Source: an uncultured Candidatus Saccharibacteria bacterium (GTDB lineage: Bacteria > Patescibacteriota > Minisyncoccia > Phycocordibacterales > UBA1550). Taken from it: a stretch of 64,000 bases of DNA. Shown one piece after another: positions 2,898-58,163 of the stretch (its first letter is position 1; every line of letters begins with the position of its first letter). The notes under the pieces were generated by a model. That model saw only the letters and a list, made by a program, of their open reading frames with translations. It was not told the origin of the DNA and did no database searches. The translations under genes and the position numbers were made by a program. The stretch spans positions 33,685-97,684 of the forward strand of contig CAZXOE010000003.1 of the NCBI GenBank assembly GCA_964642305.1, in the 5' to 3' direction.

Positions 2898-3037
2898 ATT
2901 GAAGTAGAATGCTGGGGTTTTGGCAATATCGCGCGCAAATTCTTTTGAAGACTATTGCTTGCGCTCAAGTCTTCAAAAGGAGGTGCGCGGATTGCTCAAA
3001 AAACCCACAGATGCATCCTAGCATATAGGGAAATATA

Positions 3038-3184
3038 GTCAACCCTCACACCTACTTTTTCATTATTGCATGGTGTTTTTAATATATTGCCTACAAAAAC
3101 TTCATATACCACTTAGTAGATAGGAATTTCTAGGCAAACTTGGAGCACCAAAAACACGATGAAAAAGTAGGTGTGGGGGTCAAC
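3038..3184. repeat. Palindromic MITE-like element, GGTGTGGGGGT family copy 1 (TIR gtcaaccctcacacctacttttt / aaaaagtaggtgtgggggtcaac)
   Basis: ~22-bp terminal inverted repeats around ~100 bp; the interior also pairs partly (ttttcat / atgaaaa). Confidence 0.6.
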
Positions 3185-3255
3185 AAAAAAGGCGCCTTTT
3201 TGAGACGCCCGTTTGGAATTGCTTTATGTTTTATTATTTTGTTGATTTTGGTTAC

Positions 3256-3507
3256 TTACGCGTGCAAACAACCTACTCCCCCGCCAAATGCGAGGAATGC
3301 CGGCCCACCGAATCGGCGCCCGTAGCTGTTTTCGTTGTCGCTATGGACACCATACAGGTGGACAGGGCGACCCTCAACAGCAAGCCAGTCGTTTGTTTCG
3401 CCCGGAAGACAGCTTGTGTCCAATGACAATCCGCTGTCCCCAGGTTTTGGAAATGGGAGCATTTGAAAACACTCTTTACCTACTATCTTTCTCGGCATAA
3501 TATACAA
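3256..3507 (-). CDS. Hypothetical protein (83 aa) in a locally GC-rich patch
   Basis: ORF only; AAAGGGG 10 nt upstream of ATG; no recognisable domain. Confidence 0.2.
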   Translation of the reverse strand: MYIMPRKIVGKECFQMLPFPKPGDSGLSLDTSCLPGETNDWLAVEGRPVHLYGVHSDNENSYGRRFGGPAFLAFGGGVGCLHA

Positions 3508-3677
3508 CCCCTTTTTGTTAAATTAAAGAACTCTTAACCATAGCCCCATGCCATAGTTAATTACCTTTCATTATACCATTTTAGATAATAAAACGCAATG
3601 GCGCCCGACAGTTTGACAAGAGTAATTTCTAGGAATAGTCTACATACAGCACAGTACAAATAACCAAGGAGAATGCG

Positions 3678-4256: not shown

Positions 4257-4369
4257 TTTTTGTAGAAATCGTGTGCTTTGTGACAGTGTGATGTTAAAAC
4301 ATTATATTATATATTTCTCTAAACAATTGGCTAAGGGGTGCATCCAGGAGTTTACATCTAGGATGTTTG

Positions 4370-4398
4370 CGTCCAAGACGTGAACTTGCTAGTTCAAA
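4370..4398 (+). repeat. 30-nt double-hairpin repeat, copy A (cgtccaagacgtgaacttgctagttca)
   Basis: Constant CGTCCAAGACGT + hairpin GAAyT-loop-ArTTC; shared by six loci. Confidence 0.6.
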
Positions 4399-4551
4399 GT
4401 CTGCTGATTCGGCCCAAGGCACAGATCTGCTGATTCGTAGCTGTCCTTACTTCATTCACATAATCTCTAGGGTTCTAAAGATTACAATATGCTGTTTCGA
4501 ATTCGCTTCTCATTCACCAGAATGACCTAAGGGTCGAGTACAAAAGCGTGG

Positions 4552-4580
4552 CTGAATTAGCAAATTCACGTCTTGGACGC
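4552..4580 (-). repeat. 30-nt double-hairpin repeat, copy B (inserted into loop of gcgtgg/ccacgc hairpin of the larger element)
   Basis: 28/28 identical to copy E at 57958; absent from the paralogous element at 19082. Confidence 0.6.
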
Positions 4581-4650
4581 TGAGACCACGCGGTATTGAC
4601 CTTTATTAGCTCCTCGGCTCGGTACTGAAAAAGATTACTTTTTTTATCTT

Positions 4651-4678
4651 CGTCCAAGACGCGAATCTGGTGATTCGT
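4651..4678 (+). repeat. 30-nt double-hairpin repeat, copy C (gaatc-tggt-gattc stem variant)
   Basis: cgtccaagacgcgaatctggtgattcg. Confidence 0.55.
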
Positions 4679-4737
4679 CTACGTCGCTAATAAAAAGGCG
4701 ACCGTACGGTCGCCTTGGAATGTGAGCGCAATGAAAT

Positions 4738-9238: not shown

Positions 9239-9347
9239 GACCCAGCCCTTACTTTGCTGCGTAAAACTTAACTTACTACAAGCAACACTGAAACTGCATA
9301 CTATACTAATTCTCTATATTATGCAACAAAGTAGGGGCTGGGTTCGA
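9239..9347. repeat. Long-range inverted repeat (cccagcccttactttg / caaagtaggggctggg) upstream of rpsS
   Basis: Same CCCAGCCC/GGGCTGGG word as ribosomal-protein spacer elements. Confidence 0.5.
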
Positions 9348-9432: not shown

Positions 9433-10485
9433 CTAGAACTGCCAGAATTTCGTCTTTGGCTTGCAGTCTGCTGGAGAGTTTGTAAGATTTTCCCCGGCAG
9501 CAACGTCACAGGTTCCATTATTAACAGAAGGAACACATGCCCCTCCAGAGAGAATTTGGAGTGTTGGGCACGTATTACAACCAGGAACATTTGTTGTTCC
9601 ACCATTGCATATCAGGGAACCAAATTCGTTACCAGGAGTAGTAGTACCACCAGTACCTGAACAACCTGTACCACTACAAGAGTAGCATTGCAAGGATACG
9701 GTATTATAAAAATCACCATTTGCGCATTGATTACATGCGGAGGGATTAATTGCGCCATTACTGCAATTAAATTGAGGCCCCTGTACAGAATAAGAGCTTC
9801 CATCCTGCGCTGTGCCAGAGAAATTAACCCACCCGATAACACTAACGCCAATAGGATCACTATCACCACTTGGCAAAACCTTTGCCCCTCCCCACGCATA
9901 ACCAGAAAACTTGCCGTCAGAAGGGTTAATCTTAACGGGGTTCGTCCATGTGTCAGAAAGTTTAATCCATCCATCCCAGCCACCAGCATTGCTATTCTGT
10001 GCACACTGAGCCGGAACAAGGTTGCCTAGTGCGTCCTGAGTACAAGCAGCGAGCGCGCGCGCCCAACCAGTTACATTACCTGTTACTAAATCAACTTTTG
10101 CGATTGCTCCAGCCGTTAGTCTGTATGGGTCTGCCGGTGGATTACCTGTCCTTGATCTGTCAAAGCTTATCCAACCGATTCCCCCCTGATCTGGGTTTGG
10201 CGCTGTGTCAATGTCCGATGACCAAGCGTTCCCTGAAAAATCCCCTGTATCTGGGTCAAGATTTACACTATACGGACTTCCATCAGTTGCAGTACCAGAA
10301 AAACTGATCCAACCAACCGTGTCAGTCCATGCGTACCCAGTAAGTGCAGTTGGCGCCGCCTCTGCCTTCGGTATTGCTACAGAACCAGGGTTTACCGTAT
10401 ACGCCACATAGCCAAGGCCCAATGCAATAAAGAACGCGAATACGTTACGCGCAGAGTGAATTGTAAATGTTTTTATGTTCATCAC
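9433..10485 (-). CDS. Secreted repeat protein (4x G[YN]AW…GWISF repeats, Cys-rich C-terminus), inserted in ribosomal-protein operon
   Basis: N-terminal TM/signal; ~4 internal repeats; 16 Cys in the last 110 aa. Confidence 0.6.
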   Translation of the reverse strand: MMNIKTFTIHSARNVFAFFIALGLGYVAYTVNPGSVAIPKAEAAPTALTGYAWTDTVGWISFSGTATDGSPYSVNLDPDTGDFSGNAWSSDIDTAPNPDQGGIGWISFDRSRTGNPPADPYRLTAGAIAKVDLVTGNVTGWARALAACTQDALGNLVPAQCAQNSNAGGWDGWIKLSDTWTNPVKINPSDGKFSGYAWGGAKVLPSGDSDPIGVSVIGWVNFSGTAQDGSSYSVQGPQFNCSNGAINPSACNQCANGDFYNTVSLQCYSCSGTGCSGTGGTTTPGNEFGSLICNGGTTNVPGCNTCPTLQILSGGACVPSVNNGTCDVAAGENLTNSPADCKPKTKFWQF

Positions 10486-10592
10486 GTTAGAGGTTTATTT
10501 AGAAATCTTCTAATAAAAATTTATACCGTCATCTGCTTCCTTGTCTTTGTTGAAAAAACAGCGGAATCTCTAACAGGATTCATTTAAGTATT

Positions 10593-10624
10593 ATACCTCC
10601 ACGCCTATTTTTTGCATAGGATAT
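10593..10624 (-). promoter_or_regulatory. Sigma70-like promoter (TATGCA-N17-TATAAT) with conserved GCGTGGAGG spacer, ~108-nt leader
   Basis: rc reads tatgcaaaaaataggcgtggaggtataat; near-identical motif upstream of next gene. Confidence 0.5.
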
Positions 10625-10670
10625 TCAGTTGCTTTTTACAAGAATGCTGTGGATAAGTGCTTAACAAGCA

Positions 10671-10985
10671 TTACTTCCCTTTTACTTTTTGTTCTAGGCG
10701 ATTGAATCGAATTCGCAGATCGTCAAATTCATATCTTGGCACAAAACGATCACCGAGATTCAATACATCCTGCCTTGTGGCACTCAAATTGTCTTCAACA
10801 CTAACCAACCTGTCCTCAACACTAACCAACCTCTCTTCAACACTAACCAACTTGTCCTCAACTTTTACTATTCTGTCCTCAACTCTGTCAAATCCTTTTG
10901 CAACCATAATAGCCAAGTTATCAATAGTAACGGCGATGTCATCAATTGTCACTTTTTTATTAGTTTTATTGGTTGTTTTTTTCAT
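10671..10985 (-). CDS. Small coiled-coil protein with heptad repeats (encoded by ~5 tandem 21-nt repeats at ~10797-10905)
   Basis: VEDRLVSVEDRLVSVEERLVSVEDKLV. Confidence 0.5.
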   Translation of the reverse strand: MKKTTNKTNKKVTIDDIAVTIDNLAIMVAKGFDRVEDRIVKVEDKLVSVEERLVSVEDRLVSVEDNLSATRQDVLNLGDRFVPRYEFDDLRIRFNRLEQKVKGK

Positions 10986-11022
10986 ATCTCAATTATACCC
11001 ACGCGCTTATCTTTTGCAAAGT
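10986..11022 (-). promoter_or_regulatory. Consensus promoter TTTGCA-N17-TATAAT-N6-ATG (leaderless transcript)
   Basis: rc reads tttgcaaaagataagcgcgtgggtataattgagatATG. Confidence 0.6.
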
Positions 11023-11131
11023 GAATTTCTAGGTGTTAGTCTATAAATCGCAACATTATTCACAAACTAGACCACACAAAAACCAAAAGCATGATGTCCT
11101 CACTTACCCCATTTCTATTTTTATTTTTATC

Positions 11132-12064
11132 TTATATCGGGCAACAATAGAGCTTAAATGAGTTTGTGTCTGGGTGATAATGTGGACCGTTTATTCCATT
11201 AACATACGTACCGGCGGGGCAAAAAACCGAACCGCCAGCGTACACACCCGTCTGCGCAGTCCAGAAGCAAGCTCCACCAGCTCCCCCAGCCGTACTCAAA
11301 CACTTTCCTGCTGTCGTACAAACATCTGTTACAGTGACCTTTCCGTTAGCCAACTCTATTCCTCCAGTATTTGTCCCAGAGGAATTAAGAGTACGCAATG
11401 AGATAGTGTTATCTAATAATCTTATATAAGATCCGCCTCTTGTATTTGTTACTCTCCCGTAATAAGGGCTTCCATTAATATTGTTCCCTATCCCGACCCC
11501 TCCCCATGTCCATCCTGGTTCGCTTGCCCACAGGCTCATAACAGCCGTGTTGACGCCATCAATTCCTTGACCATAATGATCAGAAAACAATCGTGCTTGA
11601 GTTGAAGAATGGTCTCCCTTGATTTCCAGTTTTTTCTGTGGCGCCGTTGTTCCGATGCCAACACTACCGCCGTTTGGATTCAAAACTAAATTGTAATTCG
11701 TGTTGTCATTAGTATAGCGTGGTTGTATCCAGCCATATTGAGGAGTGACATCAGCAGTGACTCCCATTGACATCTGAACACCGGTACCAGTGCCACCAAG
11801 CATTATGCTTCCATTTGGTGTCGCAGAATTTGATGGAGCGTTGATGGAACCTGCTGTGTGTAGAGGTGCTTGTGGTGTTGTAACTCCAATCCCCACTCTG
11901 CCAGCCTTCGTCTGCGCGGTTGCGCTCGTATTTATTGGCGCGGAAACATTCCCTGCAGGAGGAGATTGTGTCGGTGCTGTCCACGCATACACGTACGAAA
12001 GTCCAAAGGAAAGAACGACTGCTAGAGTGAGAATTTTAAGTGGTGAAAAGATTTTGTTGGTCAT
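11132..12064 (-). CDS. Secreted protein (signal peptide, VGIG(T/V)TxPQ repeats, Cys-rich C-terminus)
   Basis: Signal peptide MTNKIFSPLKILTLAVVLSFGLSYVYA; internal GRVGIGVTTPQ / GSVGIGTTAPQ repeat. Confidence 0.55.
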   Translation of the reverse strand: MTNKIFSPLKILTLAVVLSFGLSYVYAWTAPTQSPPAGNVSAPINTSATAQTKAGRVGIGVTTPQAPLHTAGSINAPSNSATPNGSIMLGGTGTGVQMSMGVTADVTPQYGWIQPRYTNDNTNYNLVLNPNGGSVGIGTTAPQKKLEIKGDHSSTQARLFSDHYGQGIDGVNTAVMSLWASEPGWTWGGVGIGNNINGSPYYGRVTNTRGGSYIRLLDNTISLRTLNSSGTNTGGIELANGKVTVTDVCTTAGKCLSTAGGAGGACFWTAQTGVYAGGSVFCPAGTYVNGINGPHYHPDTNSFKLYCCPI

Positions 12065-12074
12065 GTTTTATATA

Positions 12075-12677
12075 TTATTGGATTTGTATCTCACTTACTA
12101 GAAACTCTTTGGACATTTTTATATTTTCTACGGCGGTAACATTGAGTACGGCTCCTACTGTGATGCTTGCTATATCAGTCATAGTTTTTGTTGATGGCGG
12201 TGGTGGTGTTGCAGGCAAAGAACCAGCTTTGGCTGATTGCATATTTTTTATAAGTACGTCCATTTCTGCCTTTAACACTTCTGGTGTTTTTTGTGTATGT
12301 TTAAAAATTTTTGTGTCAGCAGTGACTGTAACGATACGGTCAGCAAGCGCTGGGTCGTCAAAAGGGTTTTGAGATTCTGTGTGAATAGTGATTTTATTTC
12401 CACTGATAGCAGTGACTGAACCAGAGAGTGTGCGAATGTCGTCGGGAGTTTTAAATATCATTCCCATTGGGCTTTCTAGAACTCTATTTTTTGCCGCATC
12501 AAAGCCTGCTTGATAGGTGTTATTACCTGCGCTCACAGGTGCTTGTTTAAAGTATACAAATGTTGCGCCTACTCCGACAATGATGCCGACTAAAACTGCT
12601 CCAATGTACTGCGTGGTGTGTGACGGGCACACAAGTGGTTGTTGTTGATCCATAATTACAAGTATAACACCTTTCAA
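12075..12677 (-). CDS. Membrane-anchored hypothetical protein (single N-terminal TM)
   Basis: TM YIGAVLVGIIVGVGATFVYF; 10 nt upstream of the previous gene, likely co-transcribed. Confidence 0.5.
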   Translation of the reverse strand: MKGVILVIMDQQQPLVCPSHTTQYIGAVLVGIIVGVGATFVYFKQAPVSAGNNTYQAGFDAAKNRVLESPMGMIFKTPDDIRTLSGSVTAISGNKITIHTESQNPFDDPALADRIVTVTADTKIFKHTQKTPEVLKAEMDVLIKNMQSAKAGSLPATPPPPSTKTMTDIASITVGAVLNVTAVENIKMSKEFLVSEIQIQ

Positions 12678-17278: not shown

Positions 17279-17441
17279 ATGTTTGTTGTTCTTGTAATGA
17301 AGGGCCTGTACACGAGGCTACTTATAAAAGTTACCCCAAAAGCCTTTTATTACAAGAGAAAATTAAATAAACTGATAAAAAAGTACCGCAAAATACAAAG
17401 TTGTGCGATACAAAGGCAATACTACCAAATAGGGAATAATA

Positions 17442-17584
17442 GTCAACCCCTTCACCTATCCACACATCGCTTTTGTTCTGCCAACGATAAAACAGTCTAA
17501 TACTAAAAGCATAGTATGGTAAATATTACATATACAAATCTACCCAAAAGCAGAACAATGTGGAGATAGGTGTGGGGGTCAAGG
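17442..17584. repeat. Palindromic MITE-like element, GGTGTGGGGGT family copy 2
   Basis: TIR gtcaaccccttcacctatccacac / tgtggagataggtgtgggggtcaa; interior also palindromic. Confidence 0.6.
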
Positions 17585-19081: not shown

Positions 19082-19246
19082 CGAATTCGCTTCGCTCATA
19101 CAAAAGCGTGGCAGAGACCACGCGGTATTGACCTATATTAGCTCCTCGGCTCGGTACTGAAAAAGATTACTTTTCCAGCACTCTCGCTCTACGTCGCTAA
19201 TAAAGGGCGGTCCTTTTTTAAAAAAGGACTGCCCTTTATTTTTTAG
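19082..19246 (+). repeat. Modular ~150-nt intergenic element, copy 2 (lacks the nested 30-nt repeat) + bidirectional terminator
   Basis: Blockwise identity with 4497-4722; ends in aaagggcggtcctttttt/aaaaaaggactgcccttt hairpin that also terminates fusA. Confidence 0.6.
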
Positions 19247-23454: not shown

Positions 23455-23564
23455 ATGAATTAGGAGTGAAGCGACATAATTCATAGACCCGCCCAAATTT
23501 TGCGAAACAAAACTTAGGCGGGTAATGATTTTCTAATCTCGCTACGCTCGTTAACAAAATCATT
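23455..23564 (+). promoter_or_regulatory. Conserved ~100-nt leader element upstream of rpmB (paralogous to nusA leader)
   Basis: aggagtgaagcgacata…acccgcccaaattttgcgaaacaaaacttaggcgggt…ctcgctacgctc…aaaatcattATG; ~80% identical to 41140-41241. Confidence 0.6.
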
Positions 23565-35832: not shown

Positions 35833-36492
35833 TTAGTGCATTGAACCTCTCAATACTATTGTATCATAGTACTTATTTGTTTTTGTAATTCCAGATCTAT
35901 TGTCGGTGAGTGTCATTTCTATTTTTACAGCCTTTGTATTTGTTGTCGTAATCTGCCTAAATATAAGATTGGTAACTGAAACTGTTTTTGTCATAAGTGA
36001 CCCCTGATCTGCGCCGTTAATCTTCATATTTATTTGGTTTCCCGCTGTTACATAAAACTCTACAGTTAAAAGCGTTCCAATCTCATCTTTTGTAAGAACG
36101 GTGAGTCTGCCGGGACTTGTGTCAAACGTGCTATTTGCTGTATTAATATTGTAAGCAGAGCGAATCTCACGGCTCATTCTTTCCATCGCGGTTGTGGCAG
36201 ACTGGCTGATGCTTTGCGTAATCCGTAGCGAGTAAAAAGACCTCATCACCATAATAGTCGCATTGATAGCAACAACTGAAAGTATCGCAAAAAATGCGAT
36301 ATAAATAATCATTTCAACTAGAGTGAACCCCCTACACCAACTTTGATGCTGCTTTTTTGTTTCGCCACTATTTTTCATCGGAAACACAGTATGAACAAAA
36401 GTCATAAACTTCGCTCGGTATATATCCAAAAAGCGAAACTGCATCAAAGTTGGTGTGGGGGTGAACCCAGTTTTTTTTCTAGAGCCTTTCAT
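35833..36492 (-). CDS. Type IV pilin-like protein (pseudopilin); true start probably MKNSGE at ~36378
   Basis: Prepilin motif RG|FTLVEMIIYIAFFAIL; the annotated 5' extension overlaps a palindromic element. Confidence 0.6.
   Translation of the reverse strand: MKGSRKKTGFTPTPTLMQFRFLDIYRAKFMTFVHTVFPMKNSGETKKQHQSWCRGFTLVEMIIYIAFFAILSVVAINATIMVMRSFYSLRITQSISQSATTAMERMSREIRSAYNINTANSTFDTSPGRLTVLTKDEIGTLLTVEFYVTAGNQINMKINGADQGSLMTKTVSVTNLIFRQITTTNTKAVKIEMTLTDNRSGITKTNKYYDTIVLRGSMH
36323..36468. repeat. Palindromic MITE-like element, GGTGTGGGGGT family copy 3 (27-bp TIR); left arm encodes the pseudopilin leader peptide
   Basis: gtgaaccccctacaccaactttgatgc / gcatcaaagttggtgtgggggtgaaccc. Confidence 0.6.
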
Positions 36493-36493
36493 G

Positions 36494-37006
36494 CTAATTG
36501 TTAAATAAATTAATTACATACGTCTGAATTGAACGCGTTGTGGTTCCAACAGATGGTGTCCACCACGCCACGGACACAGTAACAAGTTTTGCGTCTGGAT
36601 CATAAACACCAGTTGGGGAAATATCTTTAGAAATTGAGTCGCGTTTCACATCTTCAAGAGTGAACTTTCGCTCAAATCTTCCGTCTACGATTACCTTTGT
36701 AGTCGTCGTAGCCCAGTTTGTTCCATTCCATGAAAAATAGTAGGTGGTTGATGTAGACATATTTTTAAAATTGCTTGTGTAACTCATATCACGAAAAAGT
36801 TTAGTTACCTCAATTCCTTCTTCAAGAAGATAATCCCCTTGAACAGCAGATTCTGTAATCCCGCTCGTGCGAAGCACTGTATGAAAAAACCCAGAGATAC
36901 CAAATAGCGCAACAGAGAGAACAGCAGAGCCGATGACAACCTCCACAAGCCCAAAACCTTTTTTATTGAGAGAAGTATTCATGTAAAAAGTATACCCCCA
37001 CACCAA
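36494..37006 (-). CDS. Type IV pilin-like protein; true start probably MNTSLNKKGFGLVEV
   Basis: Prepilin-like KKG|FGLVEVVIGSAVLSV. Confidence 0.5.
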   Translation of the reverse strand: MVWGYTFYMNTSLNKKGFGLVEVVIGSAVLSVALFGISGFFHTVLRTSGITESAVQGDYLLEEGIEVTKLFRDMSYTSNFKNMSTSTTYYFSWNGTNWATTTTKVIVDGRFERKFTLEDVKRDSISKDISPTGVYDPDAKLVTVSVAWWTPSVGTTTRSIQTYVINLFNN

Positions 37007-37110
37007 CTTTTTACATAATATTTTGGCTCACTTTTTTTACGCAAATGGTAATGTCTCATTTTAATGTTAAATATGCTAAGTAAAAGTTGGTGTGGGGGTA
37101 TATCATGGAT
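36986..37110. repeat. Palindromic MITE-like element, GGTGTGGGGGT family copy 4; termini carry outward TATACT/TATATC -10-like boxes
   Basis: aaagtataccccccacaccaactttttac / gtaaaagttggtgtgggggtatat; rc of left end gives GGTGTGGGGGTATACT-N6-ATG of pilin gene. Confidence 0.6.
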
Positions 37111-41139: not shown

Positions 41140-41241
41140 GGAGCAAAGCGACATATTTTACTTAACCCGCCAAAATTTTCTGAAAGAAAACTTAGGCGGG
41201 TGAGATTTTCAACCTCGCTTCGCTCAAAGAAAATCATCATC
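41140..41241 (+). promoter_or_regulatory. Conserved ~100-nt leader element upstream of nusA (paralogous to rpmB leader)
   Basis: aggagcaaagcgacata…acccgccaaaattttctgaaagaaaacttaggcgggt…ctcgcttcgctc…aaaatcatcatcATG. Confidence 0.6.
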
Positions 41242-42546: not shown

Positions 42547-42617
42547 TTACTTCCAACTTGCCTCGTCTTTGCGAGTACCCGAAGCAAACCAGGGCACGTG
42601 CAATAAATCCTGGATAG

Positions 42618-42650
42618 CGCCCAAGACGTGAATCTGGTGATTCAGCCACG
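42618..42650 (+). repeat. 30-nt double-hairpin repeat, copy D, followed by AGGAG/CTCCT hairpin
   Basis: cgcccaagacgtgaatctggtgattcagccacg. Confidence 0.55.
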
Positions 42651-43325: not shown

Positions 43326-43421
43326 CTCATCTTATATACCTCCACACCTACTTTTATGTACCTCATGTCATGTGGATTATGTGTATAAACCCCATATACA
43401 AAAAGTAGGTGTGGGGGTATA
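43326..43421. repeat. Palindromic MITE-like element, GGTGTGGGGGT family copy 5 (short interior)
   Basis: tatacctccacacctactttt / aaaagtaggtgtgggggtata. Confidence 0.55.
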
Positions 43422-57734: not shown

Positions 57735-58163
57735 CTAAAGAACGATATTCTCCAAAAATTTGACTCGTGCCTTACGAGTTTTTATGTCAATTTCAACGGT
57801 AACTGCGTCAAAAACCCATTCTGGCTCCCCGTTTGCGTGTTTTTCAAACAAATATAACTGAATTACACGCGCTAGTCTCTTGAGTTTGTACGGGTGAAGA
57901 TTGTCTTCTGGACGATAACTGCTTGTTTCACGCGAAACATTCCTACTGTTTTCACTGCGTCCAAGACGTGAATTTGCTAATTCAGTAACACTTTTTACCT
58001 CAATAAAATGGGTAATTCCGTCCTTTTTAGCAATAATATCAATTTCCCCGCACTTTTTGAGGTAATTTCGCTCAATTATTGAAAAATCCTTATTTTCTAA
58101 GTATTTTACGGCAATATCCTCTCCCAAGCGTCCAATTTTCTGCTTTTCCGTAGGTTTTCCCAT
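57735..58163 (-). CDS. yraN: YraN-family (UPF0102) endonuclease-like protein carrying an in-frame copy of the 30-nt repeat
   Basis: GEIDIIAKKDGITHFIEVKS … YKLKRLARVIQLYL; extra segment TELANSRLGR encoded by repeat copy E. Confidence 0.65.
   Translation of the reverse strand: MGKPTEKQKIGRLGEDIAVKYLENKDFSIIERNYLKKCGEIDIIAKKDGITHFIEVKSVTELANSRLGRSENSRNVSRETSSYRPEDNLHPYKLKRLARVIQLYLFEKHANGEPEWVFDAVTVEIDIKTRKARVKFLENIVL
57958..57986 (+). repeat. 30-nt double-hairpin repeat, copy E (inside yraN CDS, in frame)
   Basis: cgtccaagacgtgaatttgctaattcag, identical to copy B. Confidence 0.6.

Follow-up and report, generated by a model that had tools for sequence, protein, structure and literature searches.

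A probable MITE family of Patescibacteria at promoter hexamers, pilin genes and RNA genes

Correia elements (CREE/NEMIS) of Neisseria are foldback MITEs of ~100–150 bp with terminal inverted repeats (TIRs) of ~26 bp, and they are mostly found just upstream of genes (PMC2649163; PMC10969869). The ends of these elements, when combined with the duplicated target, can be read as sigma-70 promoter boxes, and CREE transcripts are substrates of RNase III (PMC2649163; PMC10969869). The Rickettsia palindromic elements (RPE) are palindromic repeats of a reduced genome that are tolerated as in-frame insertions in protein genes (PMC10969869).

The five palindromes described here are located in a 64-kb window, this being the whole stretch of DNA that was analysed. 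Like the Correia elements, they have the structure of a foldback MITE, a short A/T target duplication, and promoter-like ends that include the duplicated target. The terminus, however, is unrelated, and the duplication is of 4 bp, where that of Correia elements is TA. Correia copies share a core with an IHF site, whereas the interiors of the Patescibacteria family are unrelated even within one genome. The promoter boxes are already present in the target of this family and the host phylum differs. In-frame insertion in a reduced genome is a feature shared with the RPE, and a transposase is known for neither. There is, however, no sequence relation to the RPE, whose families share a full-length consensus, and only one of the five window copies and 15 of 121 copies elsewhere are in open reading frames. 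The family differs from both Correia elements and RPE in its terminus sequence, its 4-bp duplication and its host phylum. Text searches of the literature returned no description of the motif or of MITEs in Patescibacteria, and no Patescibacteria host appears in a 2024 review of prokaryotic MITEs.

The preferred reading, given a probability of about 0.8, is that the five palindromes are copies of a new MITE family with a target preference that puts insertions into promoter hexamers.

Anatomy of the elements and their target duplication

The motif GGTGTGGGGGT, with one mismatch or fewer, has 10 matches in the window against 0.32 expected, and none of 100 shuffles reaches 10. Nine of the 10 matches are members of five inverted pairs. 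Direct reading and an inverted-repeat search bore out all five of the inverted-repeat elements proposed in the initial annotation, each of which is bracketed by a target-site duplication (TSD):

3039–3183: copy 1; TSD TCAA at 3039–3042, element at 3043–3179 (137 bp), TSD TCAA at 3180–3183
17443–17582: copy 2; TSD TCAA, element at 17447–17578 (132 bp, left arm with 2 mismatches), TSD TCAA
36324–36465: copy 3; TSD TGAA, element at 36328–36461 (134 bp), TSD TGAA
36991–37102: copy 4; TSD TATA, element at 36995–37098 (104 bp, perfect 21-nt arms), TSD TATA
43335–43421: copy 5; TSD TATA, element at 43339–43417 (79 bp), TSD TATA

The arms of copy 1 are 22 nt long and 95% identical, those of copy 3 are 26 nt and 88%, and those of copy 4 are 21 nt and 100%. 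The left arms of copies 2 and 5 are more degenerate than those of copies 1, 3 and 4. The copies had been said to share terminal repeats of 22–27 bp; only 12–18 nt of the arms is common to the five. The sole feature of the whole family is a terminal inverted repeat of ~17 nt, 5'-CCCCCACACC(A/T)ACTTTT ... AAAAGT(A/T)GGTGTGGGGG-3', which is found as C5ACACCWACTTTT / AAAAGTWGGTGTG5 in every copy, both in the window and elsewhere.

Element sizes are 79–137 bp in the window (n = 5) and 36–137 bp in copies elsewhere. As in a MITE, the elements are small (<~500 bp) and non-coding, with no ORF of their own, and they occur as multiple dispersed copies (five in 64 kb), though those in the window share no interior. 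The earlier description of interiors that are unrelated in sequence, yet partly self-complementary, holds: the interiors are unalike and a long hairpin is predicted for all five copies, with folding z-scores of -4.9 to -8.9. Against Rfam 15, only four tRNAs of the window reach the gathering score and the element has no match; relaxed thresholds gave generic plant miRNA-hairpin models alone, far under the cut-offs.

A further hairpin, with arms that are loosely like the main terminus, may represent a separate family or have diverged from this one. It has no clear duplication, and no further copies of it were found among the fetched loci.

9240–9343: possible diverged relative; 104-bp hairpin with arms ACCCAGCCCYTACTTTG, membership uncertain

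With the element ends set at CCCCC/GGGGG (C5/G5), a perfect 4-bp direct repeat brackets each of the five window copies (TCAA, TCAA, TGAA, TATA and TATA for copies 1 to 5). Statistics were drawn from 121 unique copies outside the window. Using the same ends, the perfect 4-bp direct repeat is present in 43 of 106 outside copies, against a shuffled-pairing mean of 8.3 and maximum of 14, and there is no excess of direct repeats at 3, 5 or 6 bp. A duplication of 5 or 6 bp (GTATAC, GTCAAC), although it fits the window by eye, is ruled out because the excess is confined to 4 bp. The extra G...C around the window duplications reflects target preference. Nor, where the flanking 4-mers are non-palindromic, are the flank repeats an extension of the inverted repeat of the arms, since such outside copies have 22 direct repeats to 1 inverted.

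The most frequent duplications outside the window are TATA (20), TAAA (7) and TTTA (5). From the G run outward, the flanks have the consensus T-A-W-A-C-T, with TATACT on 25 of 219 sides. This implies that the favoured target is T-A/T-A/T-A within a roughly palindromic AG-TATA-CT, and because this target is roughly palindromic, both ends of an element look like -10 boxes.

One metagenomic sub-family (L142, L161, L167, L195, L206, L226, L249 and others) has extended conserved flanks that are inverted, not direct. In this layout the core is nested in longer inverted flanks, in the order tagCCGAATTtAC, core, GTTcAATTCGgc, with each longer flank preceded by a small hairpin, making a composite palindrome of ~200 bp.

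Host sequence at the insertion sites

Copy 1 is positioned between a minus-strand terminator (3190–3210) and the rpsN promoter, and copy 2 is upstream of tuf. A promoter scan of the minus strand identified TTGACT-16-TAGGAT at 3042–3015 and TTGACT-16-TAGTAT at 17446–17419, both with TG before the -10 box:

3015–3042, minus strand: rpsN host promoter, TTGACT-16-TG-n-TAGGAT; the leading TTGA is one TSD copy of copy 1
17419–17446, minus strand: tuf host promoter, TTGACT-16-TG-n-TAGTAT; the leading four bases are one TSD copy of copy 2

In both promoters the first four bases make up one copy of the duplication, from which it follows that copies 1 and 2 inserted at the TTGA of a -35 box and that the duplication regenerated the box. 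The rpsN promoter, GGGGTTGACT...TG-n-TAGGAT, is identical in relatives that do not have the element and is therefore native. Ten relative loci encoding an identical S14 protein are without copy 1. Homology of the window to these loci breaks at 3042–3045 and resumes at 3181, and in the relatives the gap is filled by other inserts of 0.6–1.6 kb, so that this locus is a hot spot and not a simple empty site. An empty site for copy 2 was not obtained among the contigs retrieved, all of which are from the same population.

In this lineage the ribosomal protein operon is split between rplE and rpsN by a variable insert of 0.8–1.6 kb (2898–3677 in the window, about 1600–3000 in L120–L129), and rpsN has a promoter of its own.

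Copy 3 interrupts a pseudopilin gene:

35833–36492, minus strand: pseudopilin ORF with in-frame copy 3; original start MKGSRKKTGF, G↓FTLVEM cleavage site regenerated by the TSD

Together with one TSD, copy 3 is 138 bp, or 46 codons, and is in frame within the leader-coding part of the gene. The ORF reads through it as ...HQSWCRG↓FTLVEM, so it was correctly recognised that the arm encodes part of the pseudopilin leader. Deletion of copy 3 and one repeat restores MKGSRKKTG↓FTLVEM and a protein of 173 aa, and a protein search with the restored sequence found many homologues of exactly 173 aa. One of these, P0002, is 86% identical to the restored pseudopilin and has the N-terminus MKGSRKKTGFTLVEM. 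It is encoded by L140, in which the empty site reads ...AAAAAAAACAGGCTTCACATTAGTAGAAATG, also given as ...ACAGGCTTCACATTAGTAGAAATG. The suggestion that the elements derive from prepilin gene starts is not compatible with the uninterrupted homologues, which read MKGSRKKTGFTLVEM without arm sequence; it is only through having inserted in frame within the leader that the element has an arm coding for leader residues.

Many other pseudopilin homologues (P0003, P0005, P0009, P0010, P0012, P0020 and P0062 among them) are called with 20–45 extra N-terminal residues. Three types of extra N-terminus occur, QLTIN...VNGQ, MEYRI...IRYS and EWRM...IPHS, of which the MEYRI type alone was read at the DNA level (L381 9960–10120, L382 9940–10130). 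Back-translation of these ends to inverted repeats suggests that other palindromic families may be present just upstream of the pseudopilin gene. The true start is probably a GTG or TTG giving M-K-x-x-x-R-G↓FTLVEM, and gene callers over-extend the ORFs of these homologues.

Copy 4 is between two pilin genes, on a TATACT box that precedes the ATG at 36982 by 6 nt. The TATACT-N6-ATG noted beside this copy was seen by direct reading at 36982–36994 on the minus strand. The empty site in L139 reads ...GTGATATACTTTTTGTATG and retains TATACT-N6-ATG without the element; the -10 box thought to be carried by the element is therefore host sequence. At the same site L140 has an orthologous copy and L382 has a copy that is decayed, arms included. 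The window and L140 versions of copy 4 are 97% identical, against about 79% (67–87%) for the flanking pilin genes. Copy 5 is between the ppa terminator and the next gene. Its empty site, in the ppa-downstream spacer of L381, is CATCTTATATACTAATAGACG, against CATCTTATATA, element, TATACTATATAGATG in the window.

For copies 3 (L140), 4 (L139) and 5 (L381), the filled and empty alleles differ by exactly the element plus the duplication. The TATA(CT) and TTGAC termini had been taken as parts of the element. They are instead duplicated host target, since TATACT-N6-ATG and TTGACT-16-TAGGAT are present in relatives that do not have it. Of the promoter-carrying MITE that was first suggested, the MITE is upheld by the TIRs, the 4-bp TSD in 5/5 copies, the three empty sites and more than 140 arm pairs, while the carriage of promoters is not supported, the hexamers being present in relatives without the element. 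Contigs sharing window proteins (among them 100% matches from ENA ERZ272478xx and Logan ERR30942xx) are 96–100% identical and all carry the same copies, and strain polymorphism in the source population is uninformative for this reason.

Under the MITE reading, insertion into T-W-W-A duplicates 4 bp of the target. As TATA starts the -10 hexamer and TTGA the -35 hexamer, landing in promoter boxes is frequent. The duplication rebuilds the box on the gene side, so that insertion may be tolerated before the essential rpsN and tuf, and regeneration of the box leaves promoter-like hexamers at both ends of the element, these being the two 'terminus variants'. Within the pseudopilin gene the duplication rebuilds the G↓F prepilin cleavage site, with the 46-codon insert keeping the frame. 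Insertion into promoter hexamers and their regeneration would thus account for the promoter resemblance of the ends. The rebuilt -35 and -10 boxes and cleavage site indicate how such an element can occupy essential control regions without killing its host. Mobilisation would be in trans, by a DDE-type transposase, and the element may influence transcription or the processing of RNA.

Distribution and the search for a mobilising enzyme

Over 954 bp, a Candidatus Yonathbacteria contig matches the window at 77.6% identity. When species-representative genomes were scanned with a single arm, ~25 Patescibacteria MAGs proved to have the arm as an inverted pair, 36–133 bp long; the scan also gave many chance matches. 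Nomurabacteria, Yonathbacteria, Paceibacterota, Saccharibacteria and Moranbacteria are represented among these MAGs. A paired-arm scan of metagenome contigs added at least 120 loci, and in total there are more than 140 paired copies outside the window. Viral contigs gave 120 single-arm matches, which is chance level, with no pairs among them. The same interior is found in different flanks, twice each within the genomes of L007 and L229 and also in L147/L188/L252.

The genomes of Patescibacteria (candidate phyla radiation) are very small, and the usual description is that they contain little mobile DNA. With five copies in 64 kb and a spread across several classes, the family shows that a repeat load, active now or until recently, is present even there.

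An outward ORF starting with ATG is present 12–14 nt past the flanking TATA on 11 of 48 TATA sides (23%), compared with 2.9% of non-coding TATA sites of the same loci. The family is enriched beside leaderless-type TATACT-N6-8-ATG starts, and the genes downstream of the element-flanking TATA are diverse.

Copies are also found within RNA genes, namely those for 23S rRNA (L234 2014–2110, L146 3317–3440), RNase P RNA (L197 3795–3900, L253) and raiA RNA (L233 64–164). These copies resemble intervening sequences (IVS) or expansion hairpins, and an RNase P RNA gene with the element is 656 nt, against a model of 367 positions. The L146 and L234 copies are hairpin inserts in 23S rRNA genes, like 23S rRNA IVS, and the L197 and L253 copies are similarly placed in RNase P RNA. 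IVS, however, are defined by their position and by RNase III excision, not by a transposon-like terminus with a duplication, and the window copies are outside RNA genes.

In eight species an element separates the rnpB 3' end from a small GIY-YIG gene, with flanks that are 70–77% identical and interiors that cannot be aligned. Both arms are invariant, in what is a biased sample because the loci were retrieved by perfect arms. The flanking 4-mers at this locus are imperfect but co-vary within species. Mismatches of the arms that are G·U-compatible on the plus strand amount to only 3–4 events, with the neighbouring genes on the opposite strand.

In 794 kb of element-bearing contigs, 11 of 13 small GIY-YIG ORFs (MFYVYILKS...YIGST) start 7–111 nt from the end of an element and read away from it (L150, L162, L163, L172, L190, L208, L212, L034, L229 and L180). 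Most of these neighbours are one conserved rnpB-element-GIY-YIG locus, and the small ORF is present neither in the window nor in the genome-set loci. The GIY-YIG nuclease was rejected as the mobiliser on both grounds, most cases being a single orthologous locus.

No autonomous element with the family termini was found in ~270 fetched Patescibacteria or metagenome loci or in the viral contigs, and no arm pair 0.26–5 kb apart with a matching duplication was found in ~390 fetched loci. Long-spaced arm pairs were considered as autonomous elements and all proved to be separate small copies or coding repeats. The insert that fills the copy-1 gap in L124 carries an rve (IS481-like) transposase with ends (TGT) that are unrelated, and it was rejected as the mobiliser, as was the unrelated serine recombinase of L055. 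Pfam identified no transposase in ten ORFs of the window. Elements of the IS1380 type, which encode DDE enzymes, have 5'-CC ends, a short A/T-rich duplication of 4–5 bp and a palindromic target. The family is like MITEs of this type in all three respects, although neither a full-length element nor a related transposase was found. As a marker, the conserved 17-nt terminus could help to trace the transposase.

Alternative readings and other repeats of the window

Two observations sit poorly with the MITE reading in its simplest form. The five interiors in 64 kb are unrelated, unlike a burst from one master copy, and copy 4 is better conserved than its flanks, yet its arms have decayed at the same site in L382. 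In addition, simple neutral decay of a dead insertion is not expected to give the invariant arms and unalignable interiors seen at rnpB. The rnpB pattern suggests repeated insertion into one hot spot, replacement of the interior, or maintenance in place. A second possibility is tentative and a good deal less probable than a conventional MITE: integration would home to sigma-70 hexamers and to the loops or ends of structured RNA genes, the 17-nt arms would be actively maintained or renewed in place, and the enzyme would not be a linked DDE transposase. The hexamers concerned may be the TATA of the -10 boxes of leaderless genes and the TTGA of -35 boxes, and maintenance or renewal of the arms across Patescibacteria may be through concerted evolution, swapping of interiors or a host function. 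This proposal is based on the rnpB arms, the 97% identity of copy 4 against ~79%, the eight-fold enrichment at leaderless -10 boxes and the fact that no autonomous copy was found.

It is improbable that the palindromes are host regulatory sequences, that is, operator or promoter modules in which the GGTGTGGGGG arm is a protein-binding or promoter-spacer element for divergent or flanking promoters. The arms do adjoin -35 boxes (copies 1 and 2) and -10-like boxes, many outside copies are 12–16 nt before an ATG, the arms are invariant at rnpB in eight species and copy 4 is conserved above its neighbours. The arm, however, occurs in two registers, since copies 1 and 2 have it at the -35 box and copy 4 at the -10-like box, and arms are also present in coding sequence (copy 3, and the 15 of 121 copies) and in 23S rRNA, RNase P RNA and raiA RNA. 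A regulator-binding palindrome, as had been suggested, does not agree with a motif that abuts -35 boxes, -10 boxes, coding sequence and RNA genes alike. The elements are neither at a fixed distance to the transcription start nor present with every promoter, and the orthologous promoter hexamers occur in relatives that do not have them. The arms decay in L382, and the 4-bp duplication and exact presence/absence alleles are left unexplained by regulation.

Less credible again is that the elements are structured RNAs first, selected for their fold as processing or termination hairpins, RNase III substrates or IVS-like expansion segments. Points in favour of this are the very high stability of the hairpins (z to -8.9), the copy-specific extensions of the stem beyond the shared arm, and the copies at the rnpB 3' end and inside rRNA and RNase P RNA. 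The length of the interior, however, varies between 2 and about 110 nt and its structure is not conserved, while the arm sequence itself is conserved beyond pairing. A U-tract is absent, there is no Rfam match, and copies 1 and 2 are upstream of the -35 boxes of the rpsN and tuf promoters. Any function as RNA would follow from insertion, and it leaves the duplication and the empty sites unexplained.

REP/BIME-like or IS200/IS605-type palindromes moved by HUH enzymes (RAYT/TnpA), or uptake signals kept by recombination drive in competent cells, are likewise improbable. In their favour are the palindromic architecture, the failure to find a DDE transposase, the ComEC and type IV pilus operon in the window and the arms kept at the orthologous rnpB locus. 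HUH-mobilised elements, however, make no target duplication, where one of 4 bp is strongly supported here, and uptake sequences do not occur as alleles of element plus duplication, with about one arm per 6 kb also being low for an uptake signal. No RAYT or TnpA gene came to notice. REP/BIME are likewise dispersed extragenic palindromes, but REPs are 20–40 nt with a GTAG-type motif and no target duplication, while the Patescibacteria arms vary at GTAGG/GTTGG and have the 4-bp duplication.

The MITE family affects annotation in three ways, through ends that mimic promoters, predicted pilin leader peptides that are inflated by in-frame copies, and genes for 23S rRNA, RNase P RNA and raiA RNA that are made longer by the copies inside them.

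Further repeats were seen in the window. A second hairpin family, of 37 nt (ACCCGCCMAAATTTT...AAAACTTAGGCGGGT), is present at 23487–23523 and 41165–41201. Its architecture is like that of the main family, with ACCC...GGGT ends next to an A/T run, and both copies are enclosed by larger inverted flanks that are alike (AAGCGACATA...CTCGCTT). The pseudopilin homologues P0017 and P0037 have 14 additional residues just before G↓FTLVEM (GF-TRQNFSKKNLGGF-T), which could, as judged from the protein sequence only, be a translated insert of the 37-nt type. A third dispersed repeat of ~30–44 nt, (T)GCGTCCAAGACGTGAATYTGSTRATTCAG, has an internal palindrome and occurs about seven times, in either orientation, with a cluster of three at 4.37–4.68 kb:

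1274–1308: third repeat
4368–4396: third repeat
4411–4443: third repeat
4542–4585: third repeat
4649–4683: third repeat
42616–42650: third repeat
57952–57995: third repeat

There is also a 64-nt direct repeat, 97% identical, at 4579–4642 and 19111–19174 (14.5 kb apart), GCWGAGACCACGCGGTATTGACCT..., with a TTGAC-like box inside. A recurrent promoter consensus, ...ATAGGCGTGGAGGTATAAT, had been described before cassette genes, and was found only once, at 10592–10620 on the minus strand, where it matches the arm at 13/16, near chance for 64 kb. At 10582–10620 on this strand is the leaderless-type promoter ATGCAA-17-TATAAT-N6-ATG, and its spacer AAAATAGGCGTGGAGG, which gives the 13/16 match to the arm, may be what is left of a solo arm, or the match may be chance. 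Pfam has no match to the three consecutive ORFs (350, 310 and 200 aa) at 9433–12677 on the minus strand, and a 21-nt tandem repeat is present at 10785–10889.
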